From Ginglymostoma cirratum (taxonomy: Eukaryota), in assembly GCA_024137785.1 (NCBI GenBank), contig JAHRHZ010000014.1, positions 48,801,884 to 48,865,883 of the forward strand: 64,000 nt of DNA. The letters are read 5' to 3'. Shown here piece after piece: positions 2,800 to 64,000 of the stretch (positions within the stretch are counted from its first letter, which is position 1; each line of letters opens with the position of its first letter). Below the pieces are notes generated by a model. The model saw nothing but the letters and a program-made list of their open reading frames with translations. It was not told the DNA's origin and did no database searches. The translations under genes were made by a program, and so were the position numbers.

Positions 2800-3230
2800 A
2801 ACAAAGAACAGTACAGCATAGCAGCAGGCCCTTTGGCTCACCAAGCTTGCACTAACATGATGCCTTTCTAAACTTTAAAAACTTTTTGACTCTATGTGGT
2901 CAGTTTCCCTCTATTCCCTGCCTAATCATATATCTTTCAAGAGATAGTAGGTGAAGAAGGGTCTCAAGAAGGGTTTAGGCCCGAAACGTCAGCCTTCCTG
3001 CTCCTCTGATGCTGCTTGGCCTGCTGTGTTCATCCAGCTCTACACCTTGTTATCTCATATATCTGTCAAGATGCCTCTTCAACATTGCTATTGTATCTGC
3101 TTCAACTACATCCTGTCAGTACATTCCAGACACTTACCACCCTCTGTGAAAAAAATTGCCCCTCACATCTCCTTTAAACTTGCCCCCCTTTTATTTTGAA
3201 CATATGTTAATTGATGTTTCTACTGTGGAA
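2800..3230 (-). mobile_element. CR1 LINE 3' fragment, interrupted by a Penelope-like insertion
   Basis: Begins with the reverse complement of a CR1 3' tail (AACAAAGAACAGTACAGCATAGCAGCAGGCCCTTTGGCTC) and continues into ORF2-end-like sequence. Confidence 0.65.
2943..3054 (+). mobile_element. Penelope-like (PLE) short insertion, family A, with partial hammerhead motif
   Basis: GAAGGGTTTAGGCCCGAAACGTCAGCCTTCCTGCTCCTCTGATGCTGC...GTTATC. Flanked by a 17-bp TSD TCATATATCT(T/G)TCAAGA at 2926-2942 and 3055-3071. Confidence 0.8.
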
Positions 3231-3469
3231 AAAGCACAGTAGTTTGATTCTAACAGGTTGGTCTTTGGGAAAGGTGCATCAGCCTCTTTCTTGTTAGCTC
3301 TTATGACAGAGACTGTACACTCTAAACTTAAAAACAATAATTTGGCAACAGGTAAGTTACTGTACTGGTTGAATTTTTGAGGTAAAATTATTTCACTGTG
3401 TTACTCACAGTCAAGAATATGAGTTTTTAATTGGTCCATTGTTATGGTGAATTAGTTTCTCTGGCCACC

Positions 3470-4320
3470 AATGATGCACTTGGGCAGGACAAACAAGGCA
3501 AGGGAATACATAATGAATGGTAGGACCTTGGGGAGCACCAAGGATCAGAGGGATCTTGGTGTGCTTGCATATCAGTCCCTTAAAGTATCAGGGCAGGTAA
3601 AGTGGTTAAGAAGGTATATGGGATACTTGCCCTTATTAGCTGAGGCAAAGAGTTTGAGCAGGGAGGTTATCCTAGAACTGCATAAAATGCGAGTGAGGCC
3701 ACAACTAGAGTACAGTGTGCAGTTCTGGAATCCACATTATAAGAATGATGTGATTGCACTGGAGAGAGTGAAGAGGAGGTTGACCAGGATGTTGTCTGGG
3801 CTAAAGAGTTTGAGTTATGAGGAGAGATTGGATAGACTGGATAATACAGTGTGGAGCTGGAGGAACACTGCAAGTCAGGCAGCATCAGAGGAACAGGAAA
3901 GCTGACATTTCGGGTGGGGACCCTTTGGTTTTACGCAGGGTAGAGGAGATTGAGAGGGCACCTGAATGAGGGCATAAAATTATGGGGAGCATAGATACAG
4001 AAGAGACCTTTTCCCTGGGAGAGGGTTTAGTGACCAGGGTGCATAGATTTAAGGTAAGGCCAGGAGGTTTAGCAGGGAGGTTAAGGAAACTTTTTTTTAC
4101 CCACAGCGTGATGGGAATTTGGAACTCACTGCCTGAGGGATGGTAGAAGCATTAACCCTCATAACATTTTAGCAATATTTAGGTGTACACTTGTAATGCC
4201 AAGATGTACAAAGCCAAAGCTGGAAAATAGGATTGGAATAATTAGGTGGTGGTTTTTGACTGGCATAGACTTGATGTACTAAAGGACCTTTTTCTATGCC
4301 ATAGACTTCTATGACCATGA
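3470..4320 (+). mobile_element. CR1 LINE 3' fragment (ORF2 C-terminus and tail)
   Basis: ORF 3471-3905 MHLGRTN...QRDLGV...VRPQLEYSVQFWNPHYKNDVIALERVKRR...LSYEERL is homologous to the ORF2 end at 59150-59550. Confidence 0.9.
3840..3925 (-). mobile_element. PLE family A fragment inserted into CR1
   Basis: GATAATACAGTGTGGAGCTGGAGGAACAC...GCAGCATCAGAGGAACAGGAAAGCTGACATTTCGGGTGGGGACCCTT matches the copies at 16403-16496 and 43186-43281. Confidence 0.8.
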
Positions 4321-4539
4321 ATATTTTGAAAGATTCTGTGATTTGGTGCAAATTGCATGCTTAAAATTGTTCCATGGGCCTTATGAACTCTTAACTTGCA
4401 AGCTTTTGATTGACTGAAAACCTGACCTTCAAATTCAGTTTTCAGTGAAATTACACATTTTTAAAAAAGTGCCAGCATACAAACTGAGTGCTGTTTGATT
4501 GTGGTAACATCGAACAAGCATTTGAGCAGCTCCCTTTCT

Positions 4540-5000
4540 TCATACTGGTTTTAACATAGGGAAACATCCTGAGGTGCTTCAGGGGAATGTTATTAATCAA
4601 AACTTGACAAAAAAGCCATTTGAGATATTAAGGAAGATGACCGTAAACTTGCTCAAAGAGGTTTTAACAAGTACCGTAAAGAAAAAGGTAAAGAGAAAAC
4701 AGCCTGGGGAGGAAATTCGATAACTTACGGCCCATGCTGCCAAAACCATGGCTGTTAATAGTGAAGCAGAATAAATTGGGGAAGTGAAAGAAACCAAAAT
4801 TGGAGAAGCAGAAAGACTGCCAAGGTTGTGGAACTGATTGCAAAAATGGGGTAAGTTGAACACATGGAACAGTTTGCAAATGAAATTATTTTAAAATTTG
4901 AAGAATGCTAAACTGGAAGTCACTGTAGATTGAGAAGTGAAAGGGTAATGTGTGGATGGAACTTTTGAAAGTGAGAACATAGGCAATAAGATTTTGGATG
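4540..5000 (-). mobile_element. L2-like LINE 3' fragment
   Basis: Similar to 19035-19830 (CCAAGGTGCTTCACAG...CAAAAC...GGAATT motif order); highly diverged. Confidence 0.5.
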
Positions 5001-5049
5001 AGCTTGATTTACCTGACTGCAATCTCACATCTGAATCAAATATGACAGC

Positions 5050-6550: not shown

Positions 6551-6785
6551 AATATAGGCAGGTAATATTTTCCAGCATCTCTGTCAGTTCATCATTCTCC
6601 TGTCTCTGCGTTCATGGGTCTAGTATTTACTTTAGCTACTTTTTAAAAAATTTATCAACATTCTCACAGTCTGTTTTTCTATTCTGCTAGCTTACTCTTA
6701 TTCTGTTTTACCCCTTTTCATCGACATTTTGATTATTCTTTGCTGATTTATAAACCTCTGAGTCCTCAAGCTTATTGCTATTTTA

Positions 6786-6970
6786 GAAATCACGCAACAC
6801 CAGGTTATAGTCCAACAGGTTTATTTAAAAACACAAGCTTTCGGAGTGTTAGTCCTTCTTCAGGTGTTAGTGAGAGAGGTAGTATCAGACACAGAATTTA
6901 TAAGCAAAAGATCAAAGGGTCACACCACTGATGAGGATGTATTAAACAAACCGAAGATGCTATAAAATTC
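6786..6970 (-). mobile_element. PLE family D terminal fragment
   Basis: GAAATCACGCAACACCAGGTTATAGTCCAACAGGTTTATTT...GCTTTCGGAG...CTTCTTCAGGTG is homologous to both ends of 47458-47960. Confidence 0.75.
6830..6868 (-). ncRNA. Minimal type I hammerhead ribozyme motif (family D)
   Basis: Minus strand: AACAC CUGAAGA A GGA cuaacac UCC GAAA GC UU GUGUU. It has a 5-bp stem I (AACAC/GUGUU), an intact core and a palindromic AAGCUU stem III. Confidence 0.75.
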
Positions 6971-8049: not shown

Positions 8050-8650
8050 TAATTTGCATACAACAAAAAGAACAGGAAATCATCACAATAGCCAATGAAG
8101 TACTTTTAAACAAAAACAGAAGTTGTTGGAAAAGCTCAGCAGGTCTGGCGGCATCTGTAAAGAAAAAATCAGAGTCAATGTTTCGGTGACCCTTCTTCAG
8201 AACAGAAGTACTTTTGAAGTCTGGTTGCTAGTGCCATGGAGGAAGTGCAGGAGTCAATTTACGCACAAAAACTTGCCGCAAAACAGCAATTTGGGCAGTA
8301 AGTAATGGCCTAGCTAGTGTCACCTACATTCCATGCGTAAATAAAACAAGATTTGATGACGACGATGTCATCTACATCAATGAAGTTGGATGCATAAGTA
8401 TTAGTCACGAAACTAGCGAGAAATTCCAGCTGTTCGTCAATGAGGCTTAGGGGATCTTTTGAATTTAGCATATTGGAACTCACTTTAACATCTCATCCGA
8501 CAGGCGGCACCTTTGATAATGCGGCACTTTAGGGTGACACTCCAGTGCATGCCAGTGAATGTTTTTGTGCTCAACTCTTTTTTGAGTGGGGTAACCCATA
8601 CTTTCTGACCTCTAGGTAAGTGTGATATCAACTGAGCCACAACTGACACC
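8050..8650 (-). mobile_element. Deu-domain tRNA-SINE (SacSINE1/AmnSINE1-like)
   Basis: tRNA-like head (minus strand GGTGTCAGTTGTGGCTCAGTTG at about 8630-8650) and Deu/tail motifs AGCCAATGAAGTACTTTTGAAG...TTTACGCACAAAAACTTGCCGCAAAACAGCAAT. Confidence 0.65.
8108..8204 (-). mobile_element. PLE family B short insertion
   Basis: AAAACAGAAGTTGTTGGAAAAGCTCAGCAGGTCTGGCGGCATCTGT...GTTTCGGTGACCCTTCTTCAGAAC. Perfect 11-bp TSD GAAGTACTTTT at 8097-8107 and 8205-8215. Confidence 0.85.
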
Positions 8651-13634: not shown

Positions 13635-13778
13635 GTTACGATGAAGAATCTTATTTGACTTAAAGCATTAACTCTCAAACTCTGTTTTTCCTACAGATAC
13701 TGTCAGACTTTGAGTTTTTCCAAAACATTCTGTTTTTATTTGAGACTTCCGGCATCTGCAGTACTTTGCTTTTATTGT
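13635..13778 (+). mobile_element. Old PLE family B-like 3' end
   Basis: GATGAAGAATC...ATTAACTCT...CAGATACTGTCAGAC...CGGCATCTGCAGTACTTTGCTTTTATT aligns with the right arms at 14690-14820 and 17558-17689. Confidence 0.6.
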
Positions 13779-14614
13779 GTAAATATTGTTTGAGAAAGCT
13801 ATATATTCAGCTGTTCATTCCTCTACTTAAAAGTTTTATGGTGGGCTTACTGGATAATTAATATCTAAAGGCAGCAACTTAACTGAACTTCTCGGATTGT
13901 TAACAATGCCCTCATGTTTCTCTGAAGCTAACAGCTGAGTATAAAGACTGCATCTTTTTATTTTCCTGTATTTTGACTGTGAACTGATAGGAAATGAACT
14001 GTTTATAAATCAAAAATTGAAGATAGGATTGCTGCCATTTTTTAAAAGCAAGTTAGTTGACATTCATCACCAGTATTGTTCATACTACTGCTTGTTGAAG
14101 CAGTGGGAGAAGTTAGTACAGATGAGAGAGAGCTAGGGGATGTGTACTGATGGAGATTTGGCTGACAACAAGTAGCTGATTGGTCTGTGGAGTGGTGACC
14201 ATTGTCAGTGTCAAGTCAATGACTTTCTGCCTGCCAACAACTATGTAATTGGCTCTCTGGCAGCTGTACAGCTTGTGGATGTGAATGTTTGGTCAGAAGC
14301 CATTGAACCTTCGAAAAGAATGGAGCTGTATTTTTCTCTGCAGGTAAAACAAAAATCTCACCCCTGAAGAAAGCAATTTACCTTTCCTCCTCAGTTGCTG
14401 CAAGCTGTCGACCTTAACCAATGAGTCAGAGATTTTATAAGAGTGAACCAGGTCCCCCCTCTGGCTCCTACGTGCAAGTGAAAGAGGGAGAATCAAGGAG
14501 CAGCAGGTCCTGACAGGACAAAATGATCATCTCGGTGAACCCTGCAGATAAGGGCCATTCAATTGCATTCCCAAATTTTCCTTTCACCTATAACATCATT
14601 TTCTGTTTCACAAA

Positions 14615-14822
14615 GAAAAATGGAAATGACTATCAAAAATGAGCAGGTCTAGCAACATCTGTAGAGAGAAAGCAGAGTTGACATTTGGGACTGAGGAAGG
14701 GTCGCTGGACCCAAAATGTTAACTCTGCTTTCTCTCCACAGATGCTGCCACATTTGCTGAGCTTTTCCAGCAATTTCTGTTTCGTTTCTGATTCCAGCAT
14801 CCCTAGTCATTTGTTTTATTTT
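14615..14822. mobile_element. PLE family B palindromic insertion
   Basis: Left arm GAGCAGGTCTAGCAACATCTGTAGAGAGAAAGCAGAGTTGACATTT is inverted relative to right arm CTGAGGAAGGGTCGCTGGACCCAAAATGTTAACTCTGCTTTCTCTCCACAGATGCTGCC. Confidence 0.8.
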
Positions 14823-15100
14823 TGTTTACCATTATCTTTATGTCTGACTGAATGTGTAGTGGGGTTGGGGGGTTAGAGTTTTGAGTAATAGATTAATGTA
14901 TTTATGGTTCCTAGCTATTTGCATGTCATTAGAAGTTATTTATTATTAATAAATAGTAAGTCTTCACAAGTACAAATACCACGTTCATGTTTTTTGTCAA
15001 CTGTGGTAATAACAACATTTAAATTGGGGAACTTTGTAGAATTTAATAAAATCTTTAACTTGTGTGATTACCCAGGAATAGCTGGGCTTGATTCCCAGAG

Positions 15101-15182
15101 GTTTAGGCCCGAAACGTCAAGTTTTCCTGCTCCTATGATGCTGCTTGACCTGCTGTGTTCATCCAGCCCCATGCTTGTTATC
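15101..15182 (+). mobile_element. PLE family A short insertion (young)
   Basis: Perfect 14-bp TSD CTTGATTCCCAGAG at 15087-15100 and 15183-15196. Identical to the reverse complement of 62675-62756. Confidence 0.9.
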
Positions 15183-16402: not shown

Positions 16403-17029
16403 CGTAACACAGTGTGGAACTGGATGAACACAGCAGGCCAGGCAGCATCAGAGGAGCAGGAAAGCTGATGTTTCGGGTCGAGACCCTTCTTCAGAAATGT
16501 TGACATTGAATATTGGATTGTGATGTNNNNNNNNNNNNNNNNNNNNNNNNNNNNNNNNNNNNNNNNNNNNNNNNNNNNNNNNNNNNNNNNNNNNNNNNNN
16601 NNNNNNNNNNNNNNNNNNNNNNNNNNNNNNNNNNNNNNNNNNNNNNNNNNNNNNNNNNNNNNNNNNNNNNNNNNNNNNNNNNNNNNNNNNNNNNNNNNNN
16701 NNNNNNNNNNNNNNNNNNNNNNNNNNNNNNNNNNNNNNNNNNNNNNNNNNNNNNNNNNNNNNNNNNNNNNNNNNNNNNNNNNNNNNNNNNNNNNNNNNNN
16801 NNNNNNNNNNNNNNNNNNNNNNNNNNNNNNNNNNNNNNNNNNNNNNNNNNNNNNNNNNNNNNNNNNNNNNNNNNNNNNNNNNNNNNNNNNNNNNNNNNNN
16901 NNNNNNNNNNNNNNNNNNNNNNNNNNATGCCAGCTTTCCTGCTCCTCTGATGCTGCCTGGCCTGCTGTGTTCCCCCAGCTGCACACCGTGTTATCTCAGA
17001 CTTCAGCATCGGCAGTTCTTACTATCTCT
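16403..17029. mobile_element. PLE family A inverted-repeat insertion spanning an assembly gap
   Basis: Left arm 16403-16496 is inverted relative to right arm 16927-17028. 12-bp TSD ATTCAATCTATT at 16391-16402 and 17030-17041. Confidence 0.85.
16527..16926. other. Assembly gap (400 N)
   Basis: Run of N. Confidence 1.
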
Positions 17030-17478: not shown

Positions 17479-17689
17479 CAGCAGCAAGTCTGGCACCATC
17501 TGTGGAGAGAAATCAGAGTTAAAGTTTTGGGTCCGGTGACCCTTCCTCAGAACTGATCTGTGGAAGGGTGATTGGCCTTGAAACATTAACTCTAATTTCT
17601 AATCGCAGATGCTGCCAGACCTGCTGAGTTTTTCAAGCAATTTCTGTTTTTGTTTCTGATTTACAGCATCCGCAATTCTTTCGGTTTTT
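17479..17689. mobile_element. PLE family B palindromic insertion
   Basis: Inverted arms GTCTGGCACCATCTGTGGAGAGAAATCAGAGTTAA...GACCCTTCCTCAGAAC and CTGTGGAAGGGTGA...TTAACTCT...CAGATGCTGCCAGAC. TSD TGCAAGAAT at 17470-17478 and 17692-17700. Confidence 0.85.
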
Positions 17690-18534
17690 AGTGCAAGAAT
17701 TATGTTGAGTATTTATCATCCAGTAAATACCTGAAAAGGCAAATACAAAACTGCTTGCATTCTTTGGGTTGTCTGTTATTGACCTGAACAGATCTTTGCA
17801 TTTAATAGAATGGCTGCTTTTAAGGGGTTTTGTGCAAGCATCCTACATGTGATCCAAGCTTATTTGAAAAAAAAATTGCTCAGGTAATTCATTCCAATGT
17901 TCTCTAATGGATGAGAAGAAGGAGCGAGAGTTTATTCAAAGTCATCCAATCATCCTTCTGGTCTTAAACCAATCAGAAATTTGCCAATGATTCAAACTGC
18001 AAAAAGTGGCTTTCTATTCAAGTTAGAGATTATACAATTAATATTTCAGACTATTCAAAGAGAGGGAAAACATTCCAAACATGTTCATTCTTGCTAATTT
18101 AATGGCTAAGTTAAACATTACGAGCTATCCTTCTGTAAATGTTGTTTTAAAGAAGCAGATTTATGACCCACAAAGAGAATTTACTGCTGATTCGCTCATC
18201 TTTACACTAAATAATTTAGACCATGAACTTTGTGTTTTCATGCAACACCATTTTTTACTAAAAACCTATATAAAGTGGCTTTATTGTAACAGTGTTTTTT
18301 ATAACACACTTTTCACATTAGATTAAGGAGATAGCTTCTTGAATAACTTCCACAGCCTTTTGGATTATTTTGATGACTAATTTAGTTACATTGCCTGTCT
18401 AGTTATGTTTGTGTTATCAAAAAAGAGGAGCAAAATTTCTGGTTGTCCTGGTTAACATTCTATCCTTGACCGAAAGCACACAAAAAAATTTAGGCTATAT
18501 TACCATCCGTCCCGTTTGTATTCGTCAAATTAAG

Positions 18535-20769: not shown

Positions 20770-22140
20770 TGATGAATATTTCAAGCAACGACATGAAATC
20801 AAAGAAAATAATCTGGTTATTCACACACTTGCTATTGGTGAGACTTTTCTCTGCAGGAACTGCTTGCTGTATTTGCTTACACAATGGATGTGATTACATT
20901 TAGAACATAGAACATAGAACATTACAGCGCAGTGCAGGCCCTTCGGCCCTCGATGTTGCGCCGACCTGTGAAACCAATCTGAAGCCTATCTAACCTACAC
21001 TATTCCATTATCATCCATATGTTTATCCAACGACCATTTAAATGCCCTTAAAGTTGGCGAGTCTACAACTGCTGCAGGCAAGGCATTCCATGCCGTTAGT
21101 ACTCTCTGAGTAAAGAATCTACCTCTGACATTTGTCCTATATCTTTCACCCCTCAATTTAAAGCTATGTCCCCTCGTGCTAGCCGTCACCATCCGAGGAA
21201 AAAGGCTCTCACGGTCCACCCTATCTAATCTTCTGATCTATTTGTATGTCTCTATTTAAGTCCCCTCTTGACCTTCTTCTCTCTAATGAAAACAGCCTCA
21301 AGTCCTTCAGCCTTTCCTCGTAAGACCTTCCCTCCATACCAGGCAACATCCTGGTAAATCTCCTCTGCACCCTTTCCAATGCTTCCACATCCTTCTTATA
21401 ATGCGGTGACCAGAACTGCACGCAATACTCCAAGTGCGGCCGCACCAGAGTTTTGTACAGCTGCAACATGACCTCACGGCTCCGAAACTCAACCCCTCTA
21501 CCAATAAAACCTAACACACCGTACGCCTTCTTAACAACCCTATCAACCTGGGTGGCAACTTTCAGGGATCTATGCACATGGACACCGAGATCTCTCTGCT
21601 CGTCCACACTACCATTAGCCCTGTACTCTGTATTCCTGTTACTCCTTCCAAAGTGGATCACCTCACACTTTTCTGCATTAAACTCCATTTTCCACCTCTC
21701 AGCCCAGCTCTACAGCTTATCTATATCTCTCTGTAACCTGCAACATCCTTCCGCACTATCCACAACTCCACCGACATTAGTGTCATCCGCAAATTTACTA
21801 ACCCATCCTTCTACGCCCTCATCCAGGTCATTTATAAAAATGACAAACAGCAGTGGCCCCAGAACAGATCCTTGCGGTACTCCAGTAGTAACTGAACTCC
21901 AGGATGAACATTTCCCTTCAACCACCACCCTCTGTCTTCTTCCAGCTAGCCAATTTCTGATCCAAACCGCTAAATCACCCTCAATCCCATGCCTCCGAAT
22001 TTTCTGCAATAGCCTACCATGAGAAACCTTATCAAACGCTTCAATCAAATGCTTTACTGAAATTTAATAAGTACTTAATTGAATTTTAAGCTTTAGGATG
22101 TCTCAGAGATGTGTAAAGTGCTGAGTAAATGCAAGTTCAT
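20770..22140 (+). mobile_element. Deu-domain SINE 3' half split by a CR1 insertion (20770-20900 plus 22064-22140)
   Basis: Left piece ATAATCTGGTTATTCACACACTTGCTATTGGTGAGAC...GTGATTACATT resumes on the right as TAATAAGTACTTAATT...GCTTTAGGATGTCTCAGAG...TAAATGCAAGT. Confidence 0.6.
20901..22063 (-). mobile_element. Young 5'-truncated CR1 LINE (RT C-terminal part plus 3' UTR)
   Basis: ORFs 21710-22048, 21221-21688 and 20995-21219 contain [20 protein letters not shown] and VRPHLEYCVQFWSP. (CTATGTT)n tail. Closely similar to 58755-59902. Confidence 0.97.
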
Positions 22141-22171
22141 TTGTTATTTATGCAAATCAATTTATGAATGA

Positions 22172-22270
22172 GACACAAAAACAAAGTTGCTGGAAAAGCT
22201 CAGCAGGTCTAGCGGCATCTGTGAAGGATGAAACAGAGTTAACGTTTCGGGTCAGGTGACCCTCAGAATT
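22172..22270 (-). mobile_element. PLE family B short insertion
   Basis: CAAAAACAAAGTTGCTGGAAAAGCTCAGCAGGTCTAGCGGCATCTGTG...GAGTTAACGTTTCGGGTCAGGTGACCCTCAGAA. Confidence 0.85.
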
Positions 22271-23813
22271 CAGGATTTATGCAATGTCAAAAGCAAGTTA
22301 TTTATAAAGAGGCGAACGCTCCGCAACAAGCACATGCAACCTTTCAGCCCATAGCCTAGTGTTTCCTGTCAGTTTATTTTATACATCAGTGTTTTAAACA
22401 CTCATTTCGAAGATAATGTTTTAACTTTCTTGTTTCGTCAAGAGTTGGACATGTTTCCGAATGTTAACTATGACAGCTGCTGCCACTGTTGATAAATGTT
22501 TAGCTCAACGGTATACTTTAAAAATTGAGCTTTGATTAATGTGCTGGTAAATCGAACCGAGTGAAGTGCGTGTTGAGCCTCAAAAGATCAGCTGGTTATG
22601 ATCTGTCTTAATGTCCATCTAAACAGATAGTAAGGACCTTGGTTTTTGCAGTTTACCAGCAAAACTACTTGTTGCAATGCAGATTCTTTTCTTCTGCTCT
22701 GAAGTGTCATGCTAGATGATGTGCAAAGTTCTTGGAGTGAGACATGGAGGAGCAATCTTCTCAAAGGTGAAAGTGCTACTAACTGAGCAATTTGTAATCG
22801 ACCAAGGAATTCAGATATTCCAAGGTAATGCGAACAACATCTGATCACTGTGGTTGAACTTCAGCCTTTGCACATTCTTCAGTGTTCTTTATGCTATTCG
22901 AACACAACATTGTTGTCCACTTAGCTATGAAAACAATGGCTACAAAGCAGCTTAAGAAGGTTATCGTCATGCTCATAGGGCTGGCAACAAATCTAGCCTT
23001 ACCAATGCCACTCAAATTGTGAGGAAAAGATAACTTAATGTGTCAGAAATCATGGTTTAAGATCATTTCTAACTTCACAGGAAAAATGCACGTGTTGTGA
23101 TGTAATAATCCTGAGACAATAAAAATAACGTATAACATAAAAAATTCTGAATTTATAATTAAGGACAGATTTACCTGAGCATTGTGAAAGTACTGAAAAT
23201 AAACAAGACTCACAAATAAATAAGAGTGAACACACAAATATCTTACCCATGAATTTGTTGACGTAAAATATGTTTTAATAAAGGATGTCATGACATTTGA
23301 CTGGAAATGTGAAGATCATCAGTGACGGTTGGTACTACCCTACATTCAGTAAGCTGCTTGTCTACTGCAGCTTTTAAATATGGAAGAAAACTTTAGGTAA
23401 ATCATTGACCAGTATTGGTCATTGCATGTTCAAACTCACAATATGGTTGGTGTAAGATTTTGTTAAATGCACTCAAGAAGCACAAATGTAATCATTTGGA
23501 GCTATTCACTGCAGGTAGACCAGGTGTGTGTTTGCTTTGTTAGTTTGTTCTGGCTTGATTGCACAATGAGTTTTTATCAGGAAATGGGTGGCGTGGTCTC
23601 AAGGATGTGCTGCTAGCCGGCTGGTTAATATTTTCCTAAAACAGCTTTACTACCTTAGCACTGGAAATGTTTTCCTTTTCCCTGTTCACCTGCTGTGACT
23701 TTTAAGAAAACCTCTTGTTTTAAAAGTGAAAATGCTGCATCACTGTTCTTTGCTTTCCTTAACTTGGCTCAAAACACTGAAATTAAACTTGCTGGCTTGT
23801 TCTTTTTTTCCAG

Positions 23814-25390: not shown

Positions 25391-25397
25391 CATTATG

Positions 25398-25592
25398 AAA
25401 GGAAAATACTACAGATATTGGAGATCTGAATCAAAAAACAAAAAGGGCTGGAAATGCTCAGTGGGTAAAGCACCATCTGTGGATAAAAACGAGGCTAATG
25501 TTTCAGCTCAAATCAGAACACTCGTTGAGTTGAAACATTAACTCTTTCTCTTCATAGAAGTTGCCTGAATTGCTCTCTTCCAGCAGTTTTTC
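25398..25592. mobile_element. Old PLE family B-like palindromic insertion
   Basis: GGCTGGAAATGCTCAG...CATCTGTGGA...TAATGTTTCA is inverted relative to TGAAACATTAACTC...TTCCAGCAG. Confidence 0.6.
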
Positions 25593-26185
25593 TTATAAAG
25601 CGTAATAAATCTGCTCTGTGTCCTCCCTATTTAAATACAATAAAAAAATTCATCTCAGGAGTACACCACGCTGCCTAATTACAAAATACCATATTCCAAG
25701 TGTGTAGCAACATCCCCTCCTTGTGATCAGAATTTCATAGCGCCTTTCATTTGACTCACGATTTATGACTTAAAAACATTTTTGAGAGACACGTCCAGAA
25801 AACAATTGTTAAACTGCTGCAGTTGAGTACATGAAGGACCATAGGCACCACTCTCTTCACTAGAAAGAAAGAGAGAGGAAGAGAATTAGTCCTATGTAAT
25901 CTGTGGACTACAGGAAGGAGAGATTCCTCCATGAACTACCACAGCCAGTGCAGGGATTGAACCAACTCCTTGGGTATTATTCGGCTTCGCCAGTTAAGAT
26001 CAGTTTTACTATAGTGCTGTATGACTAATATTTAAAGCTTGAATAATATCCTAATGATGGACATGCTTTCTGGTCTATGTTGAAACATCCCAAGAAAGGT
26101 CCCTGTTGGAATTGTTTTGAAAGCTATTGTTGCAAAATTTAGTCCATGGTTCATTTTAACAGTTTAAAAGTAATTCGTTCCAGAA

Positions 26186-31540: not shown

Positions 31541-31940
31541 CACATTATTGAGTGTGGAAGGTGGTTCAGGCTTTGTCCCAGATTTTTGAGAGGTTTTATA
31601 TTTGGCAAAAATAGCAGGACTGGCTGAAAATTGTGTGCCTGTTCTCCAAAGGCAACATTCCTATTTACCTGGAGCATTTGCATATGCATGACTTACAGAT
31701 GAGCTCACCATTTAAACCGTCAGCTGCCACCACCGAAGGAGGACTTTGGTAACCTTGAAGTTTGCAGCTAAGACTTGGAAAAGCAGCTCTGGTCTTTGTG
31801 GATGTTTGTTTGAATAGCCAGGGTAGCCTGTGGAGAGGAAATGTGACCTTTTTGATCTGGCTGAGGTCACCTTTGGAGGAGATAAAATGTCCATTTGAGG
31901 AGGTAATTGTTAAAGTAGGCATGAATGTGTGTCAAAACCT

Positions 31941-32056
31941 GATGCCAGAAATCTGAAACAAAACCAGAAACTGTTGGAGAAACTCAGCAGCACTAGCAGC
32001 ATCTGTGGAGAGAAGCGAGAGTTAACATTTCAGGTGCTGTGACCCTTCTTCAGAAC
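31941..32056 (-). mobile_element. PLE family B 3' end
   Basis: GATGCCAGAAATCTGAAACAAAACCAGAAACTGTTGGAGAAACTCAGCAG...GAGTTAACATTTCAGGTGCTGTGACCCTTCTTCAGAAC. Confidence 0.8.
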
Positions 32057-33394
32057 TACAAGTTGTAGCTGTTGTTAAGGCATTTAAAAGATCTTGCCTT
32101 TAAGTCTTAAAATGTCTGGATTGTTTGAAACAAAAATAATTGGTTGCTATTTTATCCTGTTGACATAGGCCAGAGGACTTCTGTTACTGGGTTATAGCCT
32201 CAGGGCAGACTTCAAAACTATCTGTTTGCATGGAGTGGTGCCTTCCTTTCCATAGTTTGCTCATTGCATATTATTATGGACTGTTTGAAGTGAGCCTATG
32301 AATAAATTCCAATGTATGTTGTTATTATGGATTGCGCTCTTGAATAATATTGAATAATTGTTGTAAGACCGTATCTAGTTAAAGGAATGTAAAAATGATA
32401 ATATGTTTAAAATGTGTACCTTTTCTTCCAATACAATGTAACCTGTAATAGACATTTAGAATTTTATTTTATAGAACTTCCTTTTATATGATCTTTGTAT
32501 GGGTTCTAAAGTATGCCCATGGTAGATTCTAGTTAAGTTAACATCATATTTGTAAGGGAAGAGCAAAGTTGGGGGCTTGTATTGGCATGAATTCCCATTA
32601 ATTTGCCATTGGAACTATAAAGGACAGTGGGGATGTTGGCAGGGGGAGAGGGAATCTGCTGGTAGTGTGGGGAATATGTTGATACGGAGCATATTGGAGG
32701 CTGTGAGAGTTGGACAGAAGTGTGTAGATGAGATGGAGGCTATGAGGAGTCATGGACATGGATCAGTGTAATAACTAGACATGGGGGCATGAGGGGCCCT
32801 TGTTTTGGGACATACTTTGGAGGAGTGGATGAGAGGCATATCGTGGCATGGACAGAGCATGTTGCGTGTGAGAGGGCTGGAATGATATTTCATGTTTTGT
32901 TCATTTTTAAAAATTAAACTTTAACACTGCGCTGGTGCACCAAGGCATGACTTCCATGTGGCCAGTCTCCCCACACATTCCAGAGTTACCTAGCCTCCGT
33001 CCGAGGGAGCCTTGCTACCTCAGAGAGAAATTCCAACTTTGCAAGTCATTTCCACCCCAGGCAGGATTTGTGAAGCTAGGTGGTGACCTGACTCTGCCCA
33101 TCCAACCTGGGAGCAAACACCCAAATTAATCCCAGCTTGAAATAGGTGAGGAACAGAAGCAGCAAGATTACCTAATTTGCTGGAATCTACTATGGGCCTC
33201 ACAGTGTCACATTACAAAAGAAAGTGACCAAAGGATTAGCTTGAAAATACTGAAAAATATTCAGAACAAAAGACTGAGGTCTCCATAGACAATAGAGGAT
33301 AAATTATAGAGAATAGATGCAGTTGAGGAGAATTTTCCTGAGGCTGGTGGTATACTTACAGATGGTCCCTATAGAAGTAAATAACTTGCAATTA

Positions 33395-43185: not shown

Positions 43186-43375
43186 CAGACAACACAGTGT
43201 GGAGCTGGCGAAACACAGCAGGCCAAGCAGCATCAGAGGAGCAGGAAAGTTGACGTTTCAGTTTGGGACCCTTCTTCAGAAAATGCTCCTCTGATGTTGC
43301 CTGGCCTGCTGTGTTCCTCCAGCTCTATACTGTGCTGTCTCTGACTCCCACATTTGCAGTTCTTGCTATCTCTCT
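43186..43375. mobile_element. PLE family A palindromic insertion
   Basis: Left arm 43188-43281 is inverted relative to right arm 43284-43345, which continues into a tail ending CTATCTC. 14-bp TSD ATGAAAAC(G/A)TGTAA at 43172-43185 and 43376-43389. Confidence 0.88.
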
Positions 43376-44810: not shown

Positions 44811-46827
44811 TGTTTGTCTTTCAGAATGCTAACACTTGAACTGCTGTTAAGTTTTCAGTTCTACAATCTTTACTTCCTTTTGAAAATTCGACCGTAAATT
44901 GTGAATACTCTGAAATGTTTTTTAACCTCATTGTTCAATCTCATTTCTTAGTTTAAAAAAAAGTTTTGAGAGCCAATAAAATGGGATTAGGCCCTTAATG
45001 GTATTAATTGCCGAATTTAAGGGCTTCATCTGATGGTGGGGCAGGAAGCTGATCCACAAATCTTCCCACCCGAGACTTTGTCGGAGCAAACACGGGAATG
45101 TGGCTGAGTCCCTTCCTTCTTGATTCAAAACTTGACTAAATGTTTTGGGGGGAAAGGCATTAAATTCCAGCCAAGGATTCTTTATTACAGGAAATTTGGC
45201 TTGAACATGAGGAAAAGTCAACCAACGTGCCTTTCAAATGGTCCTTTGGGATCATTATTGTCCAGGGAGCAGCCAACAGATTTAACGCTTCACTTAGTAG
45301 ATGGAAACAACCATTCTACTGTGAGGAAACAGATGTCCTCAAATTTCTCCACTGTCCTTTTGCCATTGGAATCTGCGCATAAACCCAGAAGCACATTTTG
45401 GGATTGATGTTGTATCAGTTCACCGATTGTATGTGCGGCTAGTCATTTGGTTGAAATGTAAGATGACACCCCGTTGTTTATGCAAGTGTACCCTGACTTC
45501 CAGGAAAGGTTGCACAGTATTGTACACTTGTATGCTGGCGCAATGTTCCAACAGTAAGTTGGGGTTTAAAAAGAGTCATAAGAACTTTGGTATTTCACAA
45601 TTGCATAAAAAGGAACTGTAAGGGTCATGTCACAGGCAGCAAGGGCCCTGGCAAAGCAAATGATAAGACTGTGTGTTGTTGGAAGAAGCCTTTCTGGAGA
45701 AGAAATTAGCTGGAATTTACAAGAACCCCTTTGAACTGATTTAAGGTATGTTTTGTGGAGAAAAAAAATCTGTTAAGCTAAACAGCTGCTTTCTGAGAGT
45801 TGAAGATGTGTGCAGCACTATCAGTTCAAGGTTTGAAACTTCACCTTGGGCAAAATATTCCAATTAGTCACAGAGTACTTGACTATGGTTTTCTAAAACA
45901 TATTGAAGCAGCAAGCGATGGAGAGAGAAGAACGGAGATTAGCAGTTGGTTGCTGTATGTAGAATTTTCATTAATGTAACATGTTCATGCTTGAAAGTTT
46001 TATATTTGTGTGTCCTAACTTCATAGATTGGAATGTTTTTATAGTAACTGATTAAATTCATTCACAATCTAGATTCTTTTCTGTTTTTTTAAAAAAAAGC
46101 CTGTTGCCCTTGGATTCTACTGATATGCGAGTCAAGATCAGAAATATGAAGAGTGGTCACCATTCAGAGACCTGTATAGCCAGAGTCACTACTGTTCAGG
46201 GGTGGTGTAAAGTGAATGTAGTTTGGACCACTTTTGTGGACCTGGGTCCTGTGTTCAAGAAGTGGCTGAAAGAAATCAGGTTGGAACAGGGCAGAAGCTG
46301 GGTCTGGGTCCGGGTCCATCTGGAACTCTTCAGAGTTCTAATAAGACAATCAGTACTTTATTTAAAAGAAAGTATTAAGCATCTTTATAGAGTCAGGAGG
46401 AGCTTTGTTTGGAAGAAACAGATTCTTGAGCCTAAGGCTTTATGATGGACTTGCACTTGAGTATTCTGAAGGTAAGTAGTTATTCACTTCAGTTTCAAGT
46501 ATCAAACTCTCCCTTTTGTGATGAACTGTTCAAAGCAAATGACTGGAATAAAGTAAGGGAGAAACACTTTAGTTTGATAAAATATTGTGGCTTATGATTT
46601 GCTCGAAAGCCCCAGGCAGCCACGGTCACAGCAGATGGAAACTGGCATGGGATGAAATTTTGATTTCATTTTTATCCTATGGAATGTTTTCTCTTCCCCA
46701 TCACCGCTTGACTGTAAGGGCAAAGGTGTTTTCAACCCTTACAACTCTTGCTGTCTGGTGGAAAGTGCAGTCATGAAAAAAGTGGGTGGAGTAGGGGCAA
46801 GTATAAACCAGTAAAACTGGCGAAAGA

Positions 46828-47015
46828 AACAATAAATTGCTGGAGAATCTGCTGGAACATGTCTGGTAGTATCTGTTGGGAAAAAGAAGAGTCAGAAAGT
46901 CAGAACTGGACTTAGAGAGTTTTCTCACCACTGATGCTGTAGGACCTGCTTAGATTCTCCAGCAATGTCAGTTTGTGCTTTAGATCTCCAGCATTTTAAG
47001 TTCTTTGCTCTATTT
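46828..47015. mobile_element. Older PLE family B palindromic insertion
   Basis: AATTGCTGGAGAATCT...GTATCTG is inverted relative to GATGCTGTAGGACCTGCTTAGATTCTCCAGCAAT. TSD TGGC(G/A)AAAGA at 46818-46827 and 47016-47025. Confidence 0.7.
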
Positions 47016-47457
47016 TGGCAAAAGAGGTATGTTTAACAGATTAATCTCGTATACTTCAAAATGGAGCTCCTGGAGGATCTGTGCATTTGTTTCCAAATAT
47101 TAGTCTTTTTTTAACTCCTTTTTTTTTAACTCCTCTTTCCTCAACCATCCCACCTTCTCCTCCCTCCTAGAGAGAGTGAGGAGTGAGAGTGAGATTAAAG
47201 GATGTGGAGAGGAGTTTGTTATGGGAGTGGAAGACCAAAATACTATTAAAGTTGGTTCCCCAGCTGGAATGCTGCTCAGTGTTTGGTTGGGAAAGTTAGT
47301 GGCCTACATGCTTCTCTCTCTGTCTATGTGGGTGTGGTGCTGCTGGTGGTGCTGGTTACTGATGGGAATGGGTGAAAGAACACAAGATTTTAATGCAGCT
47401 CATTGTCGGCTGGTAGGTGTCTTAATAATGTATGGTGCCGGTCTTGGAATGGGGTGG

Positions 47458-47960
47458 CCGAAGTCAGAAGTCACACAACACCAGGTTATAGTCAAACAAG
47501 ATGTTTGTTTATTTATAGGAGCATTCTATTTTGTTCAAAAAACACACAGTTTGTAGTAACAGTCAGTCAGTGTGGCATCTTATAAATTTCAGCCTTCGGA
47601 GTAAAACCAACCTGATTCCAGGAGGCAGATTCTGGACAAGGCCTCACACTTACCATTCAGTGTCCGACCCGAGATATCACCTTTTGTATATTCCTATCTC
47701 TCTGCCCGATTGTCACGACAGCCTAGCACTGACATTGACTTTATAAACACTTTACACACCATCTAACACTCTTGCTTACCCGCAGAAAGTTATCATCTAA
47801 CACCCCATTCACACCAGTTGTATGATCTTTTGATCTCTCTGCCTAAAAACTGTGTGTCTGTGTGCCGTGCTGTCTCACTACACCTGACGAAGGGGCTGCT
47901 CTCTGAAAGTTTGTGTGAATCCAAACAAACCTGTTGGACTACACTCTGGTGTTGTGTGAC
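47458..47960 (+). mobile_element. PLE family D 3' region with an inverted terminal fragment
   Basis: Left GTCACACAACACCAGGTTATAGTC is inverted relative to right GACTACACTCTGGTGTTGTGTGAC. Hammerhead-like ACAC CTGACGA A GGGG ctgct CTCT GAAA GT TT GTGT at 47880-47916. Confidence 0.75.
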
Positions 47961-55708: not shown

Positions 55709-56029
55709 ATCATAGAATCCCTACAGTGTGGAAACAGGCCCTTCGGCCCAATAAGTCCACACCCACCCACAGAGCATCCCACCCAGACCCAACCCCCTAT
55801 AACCCACCTAATCTACACATCCCTGAACACTACGGGCAATTTAACACGGCCAATCCACCTAACCTGCACATCTTTGGACTGTGGGAGGAAACCGGAGCAC
55901 CCGGAGGAAACCCATACAGACACGGAGATAATGTGCAAACTCCACACAGTCGCCCGAGGGTGGAATCGAAACCCGGGTCCCTGGTGCTGTGAGGCAGCAG
56001 TGCTGACCACTGAGCCACTGTGCCACTCC
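55709..56029 (-). mobile_element. HE1-like V-SINE, full length
   Basis: Closely similar to 37893-38215 in A box, V-domain and CR1-type tail. Confidence 0.92.
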
Positions 56030-56664
56030 AAGTGTTCCTTCATCTTATACTCTTCTAATATCAACAGACTCGCTGGAAGGCAGGTTTCCTGCCCCCAGTT
56101 GTCCTGTTGTCATATTACAGCCTGACCTGAGTTTCTGCTGCATATATCTGTGATTCATTGAATTCCCTTGGTTATCACTTTCATCCACACACAAAAACTG
56201 ACTTCCTATGCCCTTAATGCTGGGCTAATAATTGTCACAAGTTGCTTGCGAATCTCTTGGCAATGGTTGTTGATTTTCCTGGACATTACCCGAGCTCAGT
56301 CTGGCAGCTTACCTTCCTTATGGAGGAGGAATTGGCCACATGCAAGTTGAAAGAAGACTTTGAACTCAGTGGCACCTTTACGTCCCTGCAAATTGCTACC
56401 TACTCAGCCCAGAAATTTCACTCAGCAACTTCTCAGAATCCAGCCCTCCCCATGACGTCAAACTGGGCTGGAGCAAAGCATCTTACAGATGGGTGCATGG
56501 AGCTCCTCACATGCTCAGTTTATTTGGATATTAGCTAACATTCAAGCAGGATTAAGACCACCTCCTCCCCACTGCCCCCCCACAACCCCTACCCCTATTG
56601 TCCCCACTCCCGCCATTCCCACTTTCTCAACCAGCTCAAAACCAAACAAGAAAATGATTCAATA

Positions 56665-57015: not shown

Positions 57016-59820
57016 ATGAATAGGGTTTCAAGGTCGCAGGAGTGTAGCGGGAGGCAGGAAGGTTTGAAGTGTGTCTACTTCAATGCCAGGAGCATCCGGA
57101 ATAAGGTCGGTGAACTTGCAGCATGAGTTGGTACCTGGGACTTTGATGTTGTGGCCATTTCGGAGACATGGATAGAGCAGGGACAGGAATGGTTGTTGCA
57201 GGTTCCGGGGTTTAGATGTTTCAGTAAGATGAGGGAAGGTGGTAAAAGAGGGGGAGGTGTGGCATTGTTAGTCAAGGACAGTATTACGGTGGTAGAAAGG
57301 ACGTTTGATGAGGACTCGTCTACTGAGGTAGTGTGGGCTGAGGTTAGAAACAGGAAAGGAGAGGTCACCCTGTTGGGAGTTTTCTATAGGCCTCCAAATA
57401 GTTCCAGAGATGCAGAGGAAAGGATAGCAAAGATGATTCTGGATAGGCGCGAAAGGAACAGGGTAGTTGTTATGGGGGACTTTAACTTTCCAAATATTGA
57501 CTGGAAACGCTATAGTTCGAGTACTTTAGATGGATCAGTTTTTGTCCAATGTGTGCAGGAGGGTTTCCTGACACAGTATGTAGATAGGCCAACAAGAGGC
57601 AAGGCCACATTGGATTTGGTACTGGGTAATGAACCAGGCCAGGTGTTAGATTTGAAGATAGGCGAGCACTTTGCCGACAGTGACCACAATTTGGTTACGT
57701 TTACTTTAGCGATGGAACGGGATAGGTATATACCACAGGGCAACAGTTATAGCTGGGGGAAAGGCAATTATGAGGCGATTTGGCAAGACTTAGGATGCAT
57801 AAGATGGGGAAGGAAACTGCAGGGGCTGGGCACAATTGGAATGTGGAGCTTGTTCAAGGAACAGCTACTGCGTGTCCTTGATAAATATGTATCTGTCAGG
57901 CAGGGAGGAAGTGGTCGAGCGAGGGAACCGTGGTTTACTAAAGAAGTTGAATCTCTTGTCAAGAGGAAGAAGGAGGCTTATGTAAAGATGAGGCGCAAAG
58001 GCTCAGTTAGGGTGCTTGAGAGTTACAAGTTAGCCAGGAACGACCTAAAGACAGAGCTAAGAAGAGCCAGGAGGGGACATGAGAAGTCTTTGGCAGGTAG
58101 GATCAAGGAAAACCCTAAAGCTTTCTATAGGTATGTCAGGAATAAAAGAATGACCAGAGTCGGATTAGAGCCAGTCAAGGACAGTAGTGGGAAGTAGTGC
58201 GTGGAGTCCAAAGAGATAGGAGAGGCACTAAATGAGTATTTTTCATCAGTATTCACACATGAAAAAGACAATGTTGTCGAGGAGAACACTGAGATACAGG
58301 CTATTAGACTAGACGGGATTGAGGTTGATAAGGAGGTGGTGTTAGCAATCCTGGAAAGTCTGAAGAGATAAGTCCCCTGGGCCGGATGGGATTTATCCTA
58401 GGATTCTCTGGGAAGCTAGGGAGGAGATTGCAGAGCCTTTGGCTTTGATCTTTTTGTCGTCATTGTCTACAGGAATAGTGCCAGAAGACTGGAGGATAGC
58501 AAATGTTGTCCCCTTGTTCAAGAAGGGGAGTAGAGACAACCTGGTAATTATAGACCAGTGAGCCTTACTTCGGTTGTGGGTAAAGTGTTGGAAAGGATTA
58601 TAAGAGACAGGATTTATAATCATTTAGAAAGGAATAATTTGATTAGGGATAGTCAATACGGTTTTGTGAAGGGTAGGTCATGCCTCACAAACAAGTTCTT
58701 TGAGAAGGTGACCAATCAGGTAGATGAGGGTAAAGTGGTTGATGTGGAGTATATGGATTTCAGTAAAGCGTTTGATAAGGTTCCCCACGGTAGGCTATTG
58801 CAGAAAATTTGGAGGCATGGGATTGAGGGTGATTTAGCGGTTTGGATCAGAAATTGGCTAGCTGGAAGAAGACAGAGGGTGGTGGTTGATGGGAAATGTT
58901 CATCCTGGAGTTCAGTTACTAGCGGTGTACCGCAAGGATCTGTTTTGGGGCCACTGCTGTTTGTCATTTTTATAAATGACCTGGATGAGGGCATAGAAGG
59001 ATGGGTTAGTAAATGTGCGGATGACACTAAAGTTGGTGGAGTTGTGGATAGTGAGGAAGGATGTTGCAGGTTACAGAGGGACATAGATAAGCTGCAGAGC
59101 TGGGCTGAGAGGTGTCAAATGGAGTTTAATGCGGAAAAATGTGAGGTGATTCACTTTGGAAGGAGTAACAGGAATACAGAGTACTGGGCTCATGGTAAGA
59201 TTCTTCATTGTGTAGACGAGCAGAGAGATCTCTGTGTCCATGTGCATAGATCCCTGAAAGTTGCCACCCAGGTTGATAGGGTTGTTAAGAAGGCGTACGG
59301 TGTGTCAGGTTTTATTGATAGAGGGATAGAGTTTCGGAGCCGTGAGGTCATGTTGCAGCTGTACAAAACTCTGGTGCGGCCGCACTTGGAGTATTGCATG
59401 CAGTCCTGGTCACCGCATTATAAGAAGGATGTGGAAGCATTGGAAAGGGTGCAAAGGAGATTTACCAGGATGTTGCCTGGTATGGAGGGAAGGTCTTATG
59501 AGGAAAGGCTGAGGGACTTGAGGCTGTTTTCATTAGAGAGAAGAAGGTTATGAGGTGACTTAATAGAGACATACAAGATAATCAGAGGATTAGACAGGGT
59601 GGACTGTGAGAGCCTTTTTCCTCGGATGGTGACGGCTGGCACGAGGGGACATAGCTTTAAATTGAGGGATGATAGATATAGGACAGATGTCAGAGGTAGG
59701 TTCTTTACACAGAGTAGTAAGGGCATGGAATGCCCTGCCTGCAGCAGTTGTAGACTCGCCACCTTTAAGGGCATTTAAATGGTCGTTGGGTAAACAATGG
59801 ATGATAGTGGAATAGTGTAG
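57016..59820 (+). pseudogene. CR1 ORF2 (APE endonuclease plus reverse transcriptase), disrupted
   Basis: YFNARSI, AISETW, GDFN, LDLVL, SDH; then [31 protein letters not shown]. Stops at 57124, 58195 and 59551 and a frameshift near 58365. Confidence 0.95.
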
Positions 59821-60099
59821 GTTAGATGGGCTTCAGATTGGTTTCACAGGTCGGCACAACATTGAGGGCCGAAGGGCCTGTACTGCGCTGTTATGTTCTA
59901 TGATTGGCCATGTGTACATGTATCGCTTTGTAATGTTGCACAAAATGCCCCTTACAGCCCTAATATTGTATCTGTTGCTGATGAAGATTCTTCAGTGCTC
60001 AACCTGTCCTCTATCTTGTAAGATACCAGCACCAGTCAATGTGAGGATGGGGGAAAATCCAGAATTCCACTAAATGTGGAAGGACTACAGAGCATCAAG

Positions 60100-62185: not shown

Positions 62186-62290
62186 ACAGGAACAAAAACA
62201 AAGTTGCTGGAAAAGCTGAGCAGGTCTGGCAGCAGCTGTGAAGGAGAAAACAGAGTTAATGTTTCGGGCCTGGTGACCCTTCCTCAGAAC
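62186..62290 (-). mobile_element. PLE family B short insertion
   Basis: 12-bp TSD TCATAAACC(A/G)CA at 62174-62185 and 62291-62302. Confidence 0.88.
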
Positions 62291-62291
62291 T
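62254..62291 (-). ncRNA. Minimal type I hammerhead ribozyme motif (family B)
   Basis: Minus strand: AGUU CUGAGGA A GGGUC acca GGCCC GAAA CA UU AACU, with stem I AGUU/AACU. Confidence 0.7.
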
Positions 62292-62735
62292 CATAAACCG
62301 CAGTCTGCTTTGCGAAGTCACCATCCTGGGAATATGGCTCAAAGTTAGCTCCAACTTTTGAAGGAAATATAATCTTTGCTAGTTCTGTAATTAAATTTTA
62401 CATCTGTGTGCATGACATAAACTTGTAAAAATGCTTTTAAAAATCTGTTCACTGATGCCACTCCACATCTGAGATCATTGCCAGATTACAAGCTTAAGAA
62501 GTAATGGCTTGTGCATACACAGTATTTCATTTTTTAGAAGTGAACTATAATTGGGGCAGATTTATGAAGCAGAGATGGTTGGATATGCTACCAGTTTTTG
62601 GTTTTGGGACGGTAATTGAGTGGTTGATATCAGAAAACCTAGTCCCAACAAATACATTTGTGCTGTGAATTCGAGATAACAAGCATGGGGCTGGATGAAC
62701 ACAGCAGGTCAAGCAGCATCATAGGAGCAGGAAAA

Positions 62736-62768
62736 CTTGACGTTTCGGGCCTAAACCCTTCATCAGAT
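62736..62768 (-). ncRNA. Hammerhead ribozyme core (family A)
   Basis: Minus strand: U CUGAUGA A GGGU uuag GCCC GAAA CG UC A. Intact core and GUC triplet, but stem I is weak. Confidence 0.6.
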
Positions 62769-62772
62769 TTCA

Positions 62773-63172
62773 NNNNNNNNNNNNNNNNNNNNNNNNNNNN
62801 NNNNNNNNNNNNNNNNNNNNNNNNNNNNNNNNNNNNNNNNNNNNNNNNNNNNNNNNNNNNNNNNNNNNNNNNNNNNNNNNNNNNNNNNNNNNNNNNNNNN
62901 NNNNNNNNNNNNNNNNNNNNNNNNNNNNNNNNNNNNNNNNNNNNNNNNNNNNNNNNNNNNNNNNNNNNNNNNNNNNNNNNNNNNNNNNNNNNNNNNNNNN
63001 NNNNNNNNNNNNNNNNNNNNNNNNNNNNNNNNNNNNNNNNNNNNNNNNNNNNNNNNNNNNNNNNNNNNNNNNNNNNNNNNNNNNNNNNNNNNNNNNNNNN
63101 NNNNNNNNNNNNNNNNNNNNNNNNNNNNNNNNNNNNNNNNNNNNNNNNNNNNNNNNNNNNNNNNNNNNNNNN
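62773..63172. other. Assembly gap (400 N)
   Basis: Run of N. Confidence 1.
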
Positions 63173-64000
63173 GTTATCTTGGATTCTCCAGCATCTGCAG
63201 TACCTTTTATCTCTGTGCTGTGAATTAGTTTTTGATGTCAGGCACTAATGGTACAATAAGTTCATGCTTCACAAAGTCTTTTCATATCTAATATTTCTGG
63301 TATTCTCCTGTATCATCTTGCTGTAAATTCCTGCCTTTTGTAATCCCCTGTTGTCTGTCTGTCTTTTCCTGATCACCATTTCGGTGTTGATTCATTGAGA
63401 TTTTGCATATATGCTTCCTCCTTGACCTTCAATGCAACAAATAGTCTCATGTGGATCTAGTAACTTACCTGTCTTTTTCTGACATATCAAGTTTAAATGT
63501 TTCCTCATTGCTTTCTCAAAATTCTTTCTAAATTTATTCTGGATAAGTTCGGATGGAGCATTTCTCTCCTGTTATCAGTTTATTTTCTTCAGAAAGTATC
63601 ACCAGTTATTTACGAAGGTAGGATTGCTGCATTTGCAACAGCTTGATCGATACTCTTTCTGATGTCAAGTTCGTTGATGAACTCCCTTCACCTCAAAACC
63701 AGAAGTCTGTCAGAGGGCACTACATCTCATTCTGCATCAGAGTTTGGTTGCTCTTGTCAGGTCTGTGGCTTTTAAAGTTTCTATATTATCTAGTTCATTT
63801 GTCTGCATCTCTTCCTGTCCCTATTAAATTTCCTCTAACCTTTCTTCAACGGATATTACTGTAACTGAGGTGGACAATTCTCCATCCTGAGGGTGTTATT
63901 TTTGTGGCCATCCACGCTTCTAAACAAATAACTCTCCATATTTTGTCTGTGCCTCAGCTGGCCCCTTTAATTTTCCAGCTTCTTAATCTTATGTGACCTT

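Follow-up and report, generated by a model that had tools for sequence, protein, structure and literature searches.

Short hammerhead-bearing insertions in the Ginglymostoma cirratum genome as probable terminal pieces of endonuclease-bearing Penelope-like elements

Minimal type I hammerhead ribozymes are found in the pseudo-long terminal repeats (pLTRs) of metazoan Penelope-like elements (PLEs), including the fish elements Xena, Poseidon and Neptune, and they show low activity in vitro (Cervera and de la Pena 2014, PMC4209133). The endonuclease-bearing (EN+) PLEs encode a reverse transcriptase (RT), a CX4CxxC linker and, at the C terminus, a GIY-YIG nuclease, and their genomic copies are characterized by heavy 5' truncation, partial tandems, an inverted 5' copy, a tail of 30-40 bp that is often present at only one end, and target-site duplications (TSDs) of variable length (Craig et al. 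2021, PMC8557442; PMC3846280). This report concerns a 64,000-nt stretch of the 4.36-Gb genome of Ginglymostoma cirratum (contig JAHRHZ010000014.1, positions 48,801,884 to 48,865,883; hereafter the window), which contains 17 short, hammerhead-bearing insertions. These insertions very probably represent the ends of EN+ PLEs of Neptune/Nematis type, in short pieces that were likely produced over and over as dead-end by-products of the copying of their parents.

The elements of this genome share the whole list of EN+ features, namely the protein architecture, the truncation, the partially tandem pLTR, the inverted 5' copy, the optional tail and the variable TSD. Their ribozymes likewise resemble those described from other metazoans in the core boxes, the extra base before helix II, the G10.1-C11.1 pair, the palindromic positions 15.2/16.2, the short helix I, the existence of several consensus families per genome, and the prevalence of single motifs from truncated elements, accompanied by some pairs on opposite strands (PMC4209133). 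In contrast to that survey, the copy number is far higher here, at about one per 4 kb, helix I of one family (family A) has only 2-4 bp, and no sharks are among the genomes named in the accessible part of that paper.

Arms were detected with family profiles, each built from 30 genomic loci, and the reversed sequence served as a control. The profiles matched 24 arms in 17 insertions of the window (six of family A, nine of family B and two of family D), against 0 matches in the reversed sequence, so every insertion listed in the original prediction is real and lies where it had been placed. Of the families that were named, A and B are borne out, whereas D consists of two subfamilies, D1 (6786) and D2 (47458).

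RT and GIY-YIG sequences were found in relatives of the insertions elsewhere in the same genome (G000), and not in the window copies themselves. Genome searches with the end of each family returned many copies that extend upstream by hundreds to more than 1,400 nt, and the ends of A, B, D1 and D2 all run upstream into sequence coding for an RT, a Zn linker and a GIY-YIG domain, as had been anticipated for severely truncated PLEs. One family A parent (L126) contains a stop-free frame of 1005 aa with a match to Pfam RVT_1 of 30.0 bits (cut-off 29.6), and another (L127) matches Pfam GIY-YIG with 23.7 bits (cut-off 22.6); both frames adjoin the family A end on its upstream side. When the sequence just upstream of the ribozyme ends was compared with the A protein by tblastn, family B showed about 50% identity from RT to EN, D1 27-38% and D2 24-36%, and translations of A, B and D all contain a CX4CxxC linker between RT and EN, which agrees with the Zn-finger-like CX2-5CxxC form of this linker given in PMC8557442. 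Because of this linker, the parents can be assigned to EN+ PLEs of Neptune/Nematis type (PMC8557442), an assignment that, as judged by sequence, would cover both clades without telling them apart.

A 240-aa piece of the RT gave 79,795 first-look candidates in the genome. The closest named homologues of the element protein belong to carpet sharks, with 91%, 82% and 76% identity, and none of the best 120 homologues listed is a named reference PLE protein, the entries being unnamed or uncharacterised. Among six young coding copies, identity is 97.9-99.7% over 1.5-1.75 kb. The end of one of the six (L128) is matched without a difference by two sequences of the window, the minus arm of the insertion at 62672 (92/92 nt) and the stub at 15101 (82/82 nt). 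With parents that encode RT and GIY-YIG, variable TSDs, inverted arms and tails, the description of the insertions as severely truncated PLEs with minimal type I hammerheads is upheld. The statement that none of them has an open reading frame (ORF) is right for the visible sequence, but the insertions at 16403 and 62672 span gaps of 400 N, and all families have coding relatives. Gaps of this length (window positions 16527-16926 and 62773-63172; loci L178 and L189) often lie between inverted arms, so the internal sequence of some seemingly short elements is not readable.

Two further features of the parents concern the region around the repeat. In D1 parents (L078, L080-L083), a long and variable CA-rich microsatellite separates the GIY-YIG region from the ribozyme end. 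In full-length family A copies (L213, L226, L233), an in-frame ATG lies about 35 nt past the tail, which implies that the stubs span only the untranslated head of the RNA.

The hammerhead pattern itself stands far above chance. A minimal-hammerhead descriptor matched the window six times, compared with 0-1 matches in each of 10 dinucleotide shuffles, and matched 53 times in 566,916 bases, compared with 0-5 in shuffles. The pattern that had been described for the best copies, CUGANGA...GAAA..UH with pairing stems and a palindrome, is nevertheless complete in only one insertion of 17, the D copy with C3 at 6863, in which both helices and a Watson-Crick palindrome accompany the core; both core halves are kept within one arm in 8/17, the descriptor is passed by 6/17, and in the other copies the motif is mostly broken by CpG decay or deletions. 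The ribozyme would be kept by selection in the parents and not in the stubs. An Rfam scan with E values of up to 10 yielded 12 matches, and not one of them reached the gathering score or belonged to a hammerhead family. Folding of five window motifs as single strands gave z values from -1.03 to +0.52, and folding energy therefore provides no evidence in either direction.

The cores are constant between families, in contrast to helix I and the palindrome, which vary. When partners were swapped as a control, helix I paired preferentially with its own partner in family B (3.9/5 versus 2.0-2.9) and family D (4.9 versus 1.1-2.1), whereas family A, with its very short helix I, showed no such preference (3.2 versus 3.0). 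Among 59 D rows, which were chosen for intact cores, 87% of cells are paired and 38 two-sided changes occur, a number equalled in 0/500 shuffles; four covarying pairs were also counted, a value reached by 92/500 shuffles, and the signal comes from two or three subfamilies. The proposed structural covariation between lineages may hold for helix I of B and D; the values for A and the count of covarying pairs in D do not bear it out. An apparent strand bias of intact cores (7/8 on the minus strand of the window) was dropped, as the flanks gave 5:5 and 5:4. Outside the window, two more families with minimal hammerheads were seen (right-flank stretch L166 and L143; left-flank stretches L160-L161), one with a 7-bp helix II and a helix I of 4-5 bp, the other with a 12-nt helix II region.

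TSDs of 9-17 nt and variable length flank about 10 of the 17 window insertions, in agreement with the ten originally reported, and only 1/272 mismatched flank pairs shared 9 nt exactly. In all sampled sequence, an exact TSD of at least 9 nt (lengths 9-16) was found at 28 of 134 insertions, compared with 0.6% in the null. Inverted arms are present in seven window insertions.

The pieces consist of a pLTR plus an optional tail of 30-35 nt. Their junctions were read in 119 of the 167 arms of an unbiased sample, namely those that met a score threshold and were not close to gaps or edges. Relative to C3, the base with which the CUGANGA box begins, the 3' ends are bimodal and about 34 nt apart, near +94 and +128 in A and near +97 and +131 in B, which corresponds to the known optional tail. 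The 5' ends are concentrated at -8..0, where 27/63 A arms and 25/48 B arms begin, versus 4 and 3 arms at -60..-9; the others begin farther upstream (18 A, 4 B) or inside the repeat (14 A, 16 B). Owing to this common start just before the ribozyme, many stubs do not have the appearance of random truncations. A secondary cluster of B 5' ends at +22/23 (7/48) was set aside, being probably an alignment loss in the diverged helix II. At the 5' junctions, immediately ahead of the common start, A stubs often carry additional T residues and B stubs often show short repeated starts, as if the RT had added bases or re-primed at the end of its template.

In the parents, the common start is accompanied by promoter-like motifs. 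A TATA-like motif lies at -35/-36 in 17/20 A parents and at -33 in 7/8 B parents, and it is followed 29-32 nt later by an initiator-like A at -4, present in 17/20 A and 8/8 B parents. Of 25 loci fetched by the 5' end of the ORF, nine have a sense ribozyme before the ORF, and two of these nine start at -5/-6. The head-to-head pairs are equally regular: among 31 of them, 26 join a tailed to an untailed arm, five have two short arms, and none has two tailed arms (exact p = 5e-5, with the thresholds for tailed and untailed chosen after the two 3'-end modes had been seen).

These regularities can be accommodated by a mechanism for which Poseidon provides a precedent, since in vitro the protein of this PLE cuts both DNA strands, starts reverse transcription at a pair of internal positions that coincide with the tail ends, and uses uncut RNA as its main template (PMC11167929). 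The GIY-YIG nuclease would make a staggered cut, hence the duplications of 9-17 nt, and the RT would prime within the element RNA, at either of two sites given by the tail ends. Priming in the first (5') repeat of the RNA would lead to run-off at the transcript start after about 100-135 nt and thus to a fixed-start stub copied from uncut RNA; if priming took place from both cut ends, each of them using a different one of the two sites, the product would be a one-tailed head-to-head pair; and priming in the last repeat would give full copies as well as the ordinary 5' truncations, that is, the longer single copies. It is an evenly balanced proposition that about half of the very many short PLE copies in this genome are a fossil record of cDNA resembling "strong-stop" products. 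In this reading, transcription would begin at a TATA/initiator site that precedes the hammerhead core by 4 nt, the message would open with the uncut ribozyme, and a dimeric PLE protein would prime both ends of the staggered cut, each at its own tail-end site. If true, inverted pLTRs, the one-sided tail and partial tandems would all come from a single mechanism.

Several observations weigh against this proposal. Seven of the nine full-length copies have 3' untranslated region (UTR) upstream of the common start, which means that copying was not always halted there. Family D, in which a TATA-like motif at -39 in 25/29 parents led to the prediction of a start near -8 ahead of the locus search, has about 10/60 search-selected loci with 5' ends at -5..-12, some of them indel artefacts, and 0/8 arms of the unbiased sample starting at -8..0, and the strict initiator pattern matched 0/29 D parents. 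Poly(A) RNA reads on a partially tandem A copy (18,084) had equal depth in both directions and no peaks at starts or ends; most are 90-95% alike, 72% continue into unlike sequence, and a second run contributed five reads, so that these data are uninformative on the start site and on cleavage. Penelope of D. virilis is reported to have a TATA-less internal promoter (PMC2377424), head-to-head junctions have been explained by self-priming on an antisense template (Arkhipova 2013, PMC3846280), and the Poseidon experiments concern another clade. A tree of the B ends, which includes only four long copies, says little.

The alternative that fares best among the others, although it is a doubtful one, is that all copies arose simply by random 5' truncation of the 3' repeat, with the common start being a site at which the RT stalls or a preferred joining site (e.g., a pyrimidine tract or T-rich microhomology) and not an RNA start. 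High 5' truncation is a known rule of PLEs (PMC8557442), and the frequent extra T at A junctions and the RNA reads without a start peak are in line with it. The steep drop in 5' ends immediately upstream of the common start (27 vs 4 in A, 25 vs 3 in B) is not, and neither are the two full-length copies that begin at this position. Moreover, the upstream sequences of A and B differ, yet both families share the start, 29-31 nt behind a TATA-like motif. In any case, this explanation would alter only the mechanism of the start and not the identity of the elements.

It is improbable that the short copies form a self-propagating, non-autonomous class, similar to retrozymes or SINEs (short interspersed nuclear elements), with units of about 100-135 nt whose transcripts come from stub loci and depend on PLE proteins for mobilisation in trans. 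Such a class would fit a fixed start that, combined with two fixed ends, defines unit sizes, and there are related cases: pLTRs are the source of non-LTR retrozymes (Li et al. 2026, bioRxiv 10.64898/2026.07.22.740005), and mobilisation in trans by pLTR sequences is known in a rotifer (PMC3846280). However, the non-LTR retrozymes, which share the type I hammerhead, the pLTR origin and the lack of a protein with the copies studied here, are defined as tandem repeats with a ribozyme in each unit, whereas no direct tandem units were found among the 24 window arms, all copies being single or head-to-head and nested among coding copies. A tree was built from 39 A ends, of which 24 belong to short and 15 to long copies (90 columns, rough support). 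The short and long labels change 11 times on it, compared with a mean of 12.1 after shuffling (157/500 shuffles were as low), and old as well as young subfamilies include short copies. This intermixing means that a separate retrozyme-like class, which the original prediction had offered as an option, is not supported; in addition, within the young subfamily the stubs match coding copies without a difference, stubs are without an upstream TATA-like motif, and most of their cores have decayed.

Still less credible is an origin of the stubs as copies of RNA fragments freed by hammerhead self-cleavage, as suggested by a motif that is conserved and covaries between lineages, because the 5' ends would then be expected at +28 in A and +30 in B. 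Only 2/63 and 1/48 arms, respectively, begin within 2 nt of these predicted cuts, and a start at the cleavage site was rejected; most stubs hold the whole motif upstream of the cut. The inverted arms at seven insertions recall the terminal inverted repeats of DNA transposons of the MITE (miniature inverted-repeat transposable element) type, but this reading can be practically discarded, since the parents encode RT and GIY-YIG, the TSDs vary between 9 and 16 nt instead of having a fixed length, the arms are unequal, and most copies have a single arm.

Read as terminal pieces of EN+ PLEs, the insertions can be compared with PAc, a Poseidon element of Anolis carolinensis (Frangieh et al. 2024, PMC11167929), with which they would share two RT starts matching the tail ends, cutting of both strands and an uncut RNA template. 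PAc belongs to a different clade, and its ORF starts inside the ribozyme, whereas the in-frame ATG of family A is situated about 165 nt past C3. The one-sided tail is already known in PLEs (PMC8557442). The fixed 5' start of short copies has no counterpart among EN+ PLEs in the accessible parts of PMC8557442 and PMC3846280, and a literature search, mostly of open text and without supplements, returned nothing on hammerheads of shark PLEs or on a fixed start of stubs.

Density sets the window apart in no way. It contains one insertion per 3.72 kb, and its flanks contain one per 4.7 kb (94 kb) and one per 6.0 kb (90 kb). For the background, sixty 10-kb stretches were taken at round coordinates on large contigs, of which 27 were all N; the usable 320 kb held 83 insertions, or one per 3.85 kb. 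The predicted figure of roughly one per 4 kb is therefore accurate, but the unusual richness that was read into it was rejected, the window being typical of the genome. By rough extrapolation, the genome would contain about a million copies.

The elements are thus real, ordinary in kind and present at typical density, and they add a new set of members to a class that is already known. Their value lies in the junction statistics, as the inverted copies, tails and tandems of PLEs and the role of their ribozyme are unsettled in the field. With copies on the order of a million and a young subfamily of nearly identical coding copies, sharp predictions can be made about the start site, the paired priming sites and the uncut template, and the genome offers a vertebrate Neptune-type element for biochemistry. 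The window insertions are listed in Table 1.

Table 1. Hammerhead-bearing PLE insertions of the window (positions within the 64,000-nt stretch; TSD, target-site duplication).
Positions	Family	Strand	Form	Ribozyme	TSD
2943..3054	A	+	stub; 9-nt inverted tail remnant, doubled start	first core half broken	17 nt with 1 mismatch (2926, 3055)
3838..3925	A	-	stub; start inside helix II; within old LINE (long interspersed nuclear element) fragment		no clear TSD
6785..6968	D1	-	copy with ~104 nt of 3' UTR	only complete minimal hammerhead among the insertions (C3 at 6863; 5-bp helix I, 3-bp helix II, intact palindrome)	no clear TSD
8108..8206	B	-	stub	both core halves; deletion shortens helix II	11 nt
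13635..13782	B	+	old stub	cores lost	
14608..14830	B		head-to-head pair; minus arm untailed, plus arm tailed	cores incomplete	
15101..15182	A	+	young stub; start inside helix II		14 nt
16403..17029	A		inverted pair across 400-N gap	minus arm with both cores, palindrome decayed	12 nt
17479..17691	B		head-to-head pair; both arms from common start	one core half mutated per arm	9 nt
22166..22272	B	-	stub	deletion in first core half	10 nt
25391..25594	B-like, diverged		head-to-head pair		
31936..32058	B	-	stub	both cores present; palindrome decayed	
43186..43375	A		head-to-head pair	minus arm with both cores, helix II broken	14 nt, 1 mismatch
46809..47016	B		old head-to-head pair	cores lost	
47435..47960	D2		plus arm ~460 nt (3' UTR and hammerhead); short inverted tailed arm	C3 at 47884; G-U in palindrome	flanks with 9-nt repeat
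62186..62292	B	-	stub	both cores; helices I and II each 5 bp; palindrome decayed	9 nt
62672..63213	A		young inverted pair across 400-N gap; tailed plus-arm end past gap	minus arm with core and palindrome intact, helix I side altered	13 nt

At the insertion at 16403, the 26-28 nt between the start of the arm and the N gap (window 16500-16526) have exactly the sequence of the unique flank belonging to another copy, L013, which lies on a different contig (G000:C62). The arm matches the L013 copy exactly near the gap and differs farther off. This is likely a chimeric contig end in the assembly; the alternative is a 5' transduction.

As for the host, no exon was identified: Pfam gave no match in the 299 frames scanned out of 315 non-repeat frames of at least 45 aa (149/149 on the plus strand and 150/166 on the minus strand), a length limit that shorter exons would escape. 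The host intron of the original prediction is therefore a putative one. The plus strand of the window is mostly G-rich and T-rich; such a strand fits an intron through transcription-linked skew, a fit that does not amount to showing one. Other repeats share the window with the PLE insertions. Two LINE copies, presumably of the CR1 type, lie at 20913-22063 and 57127-59902 in opposite orientation; they are 92-96% complementary and contain long frames for endonuclease and RT. On the minus strand, 26445-29102 is occupied by a broken LINE from a different family, with frames similar to endonuclease and RT, and a SINE-like repeat of 330 nt is present in two copies (37893-38223 and 55710-56036) that are 90-92% identical.

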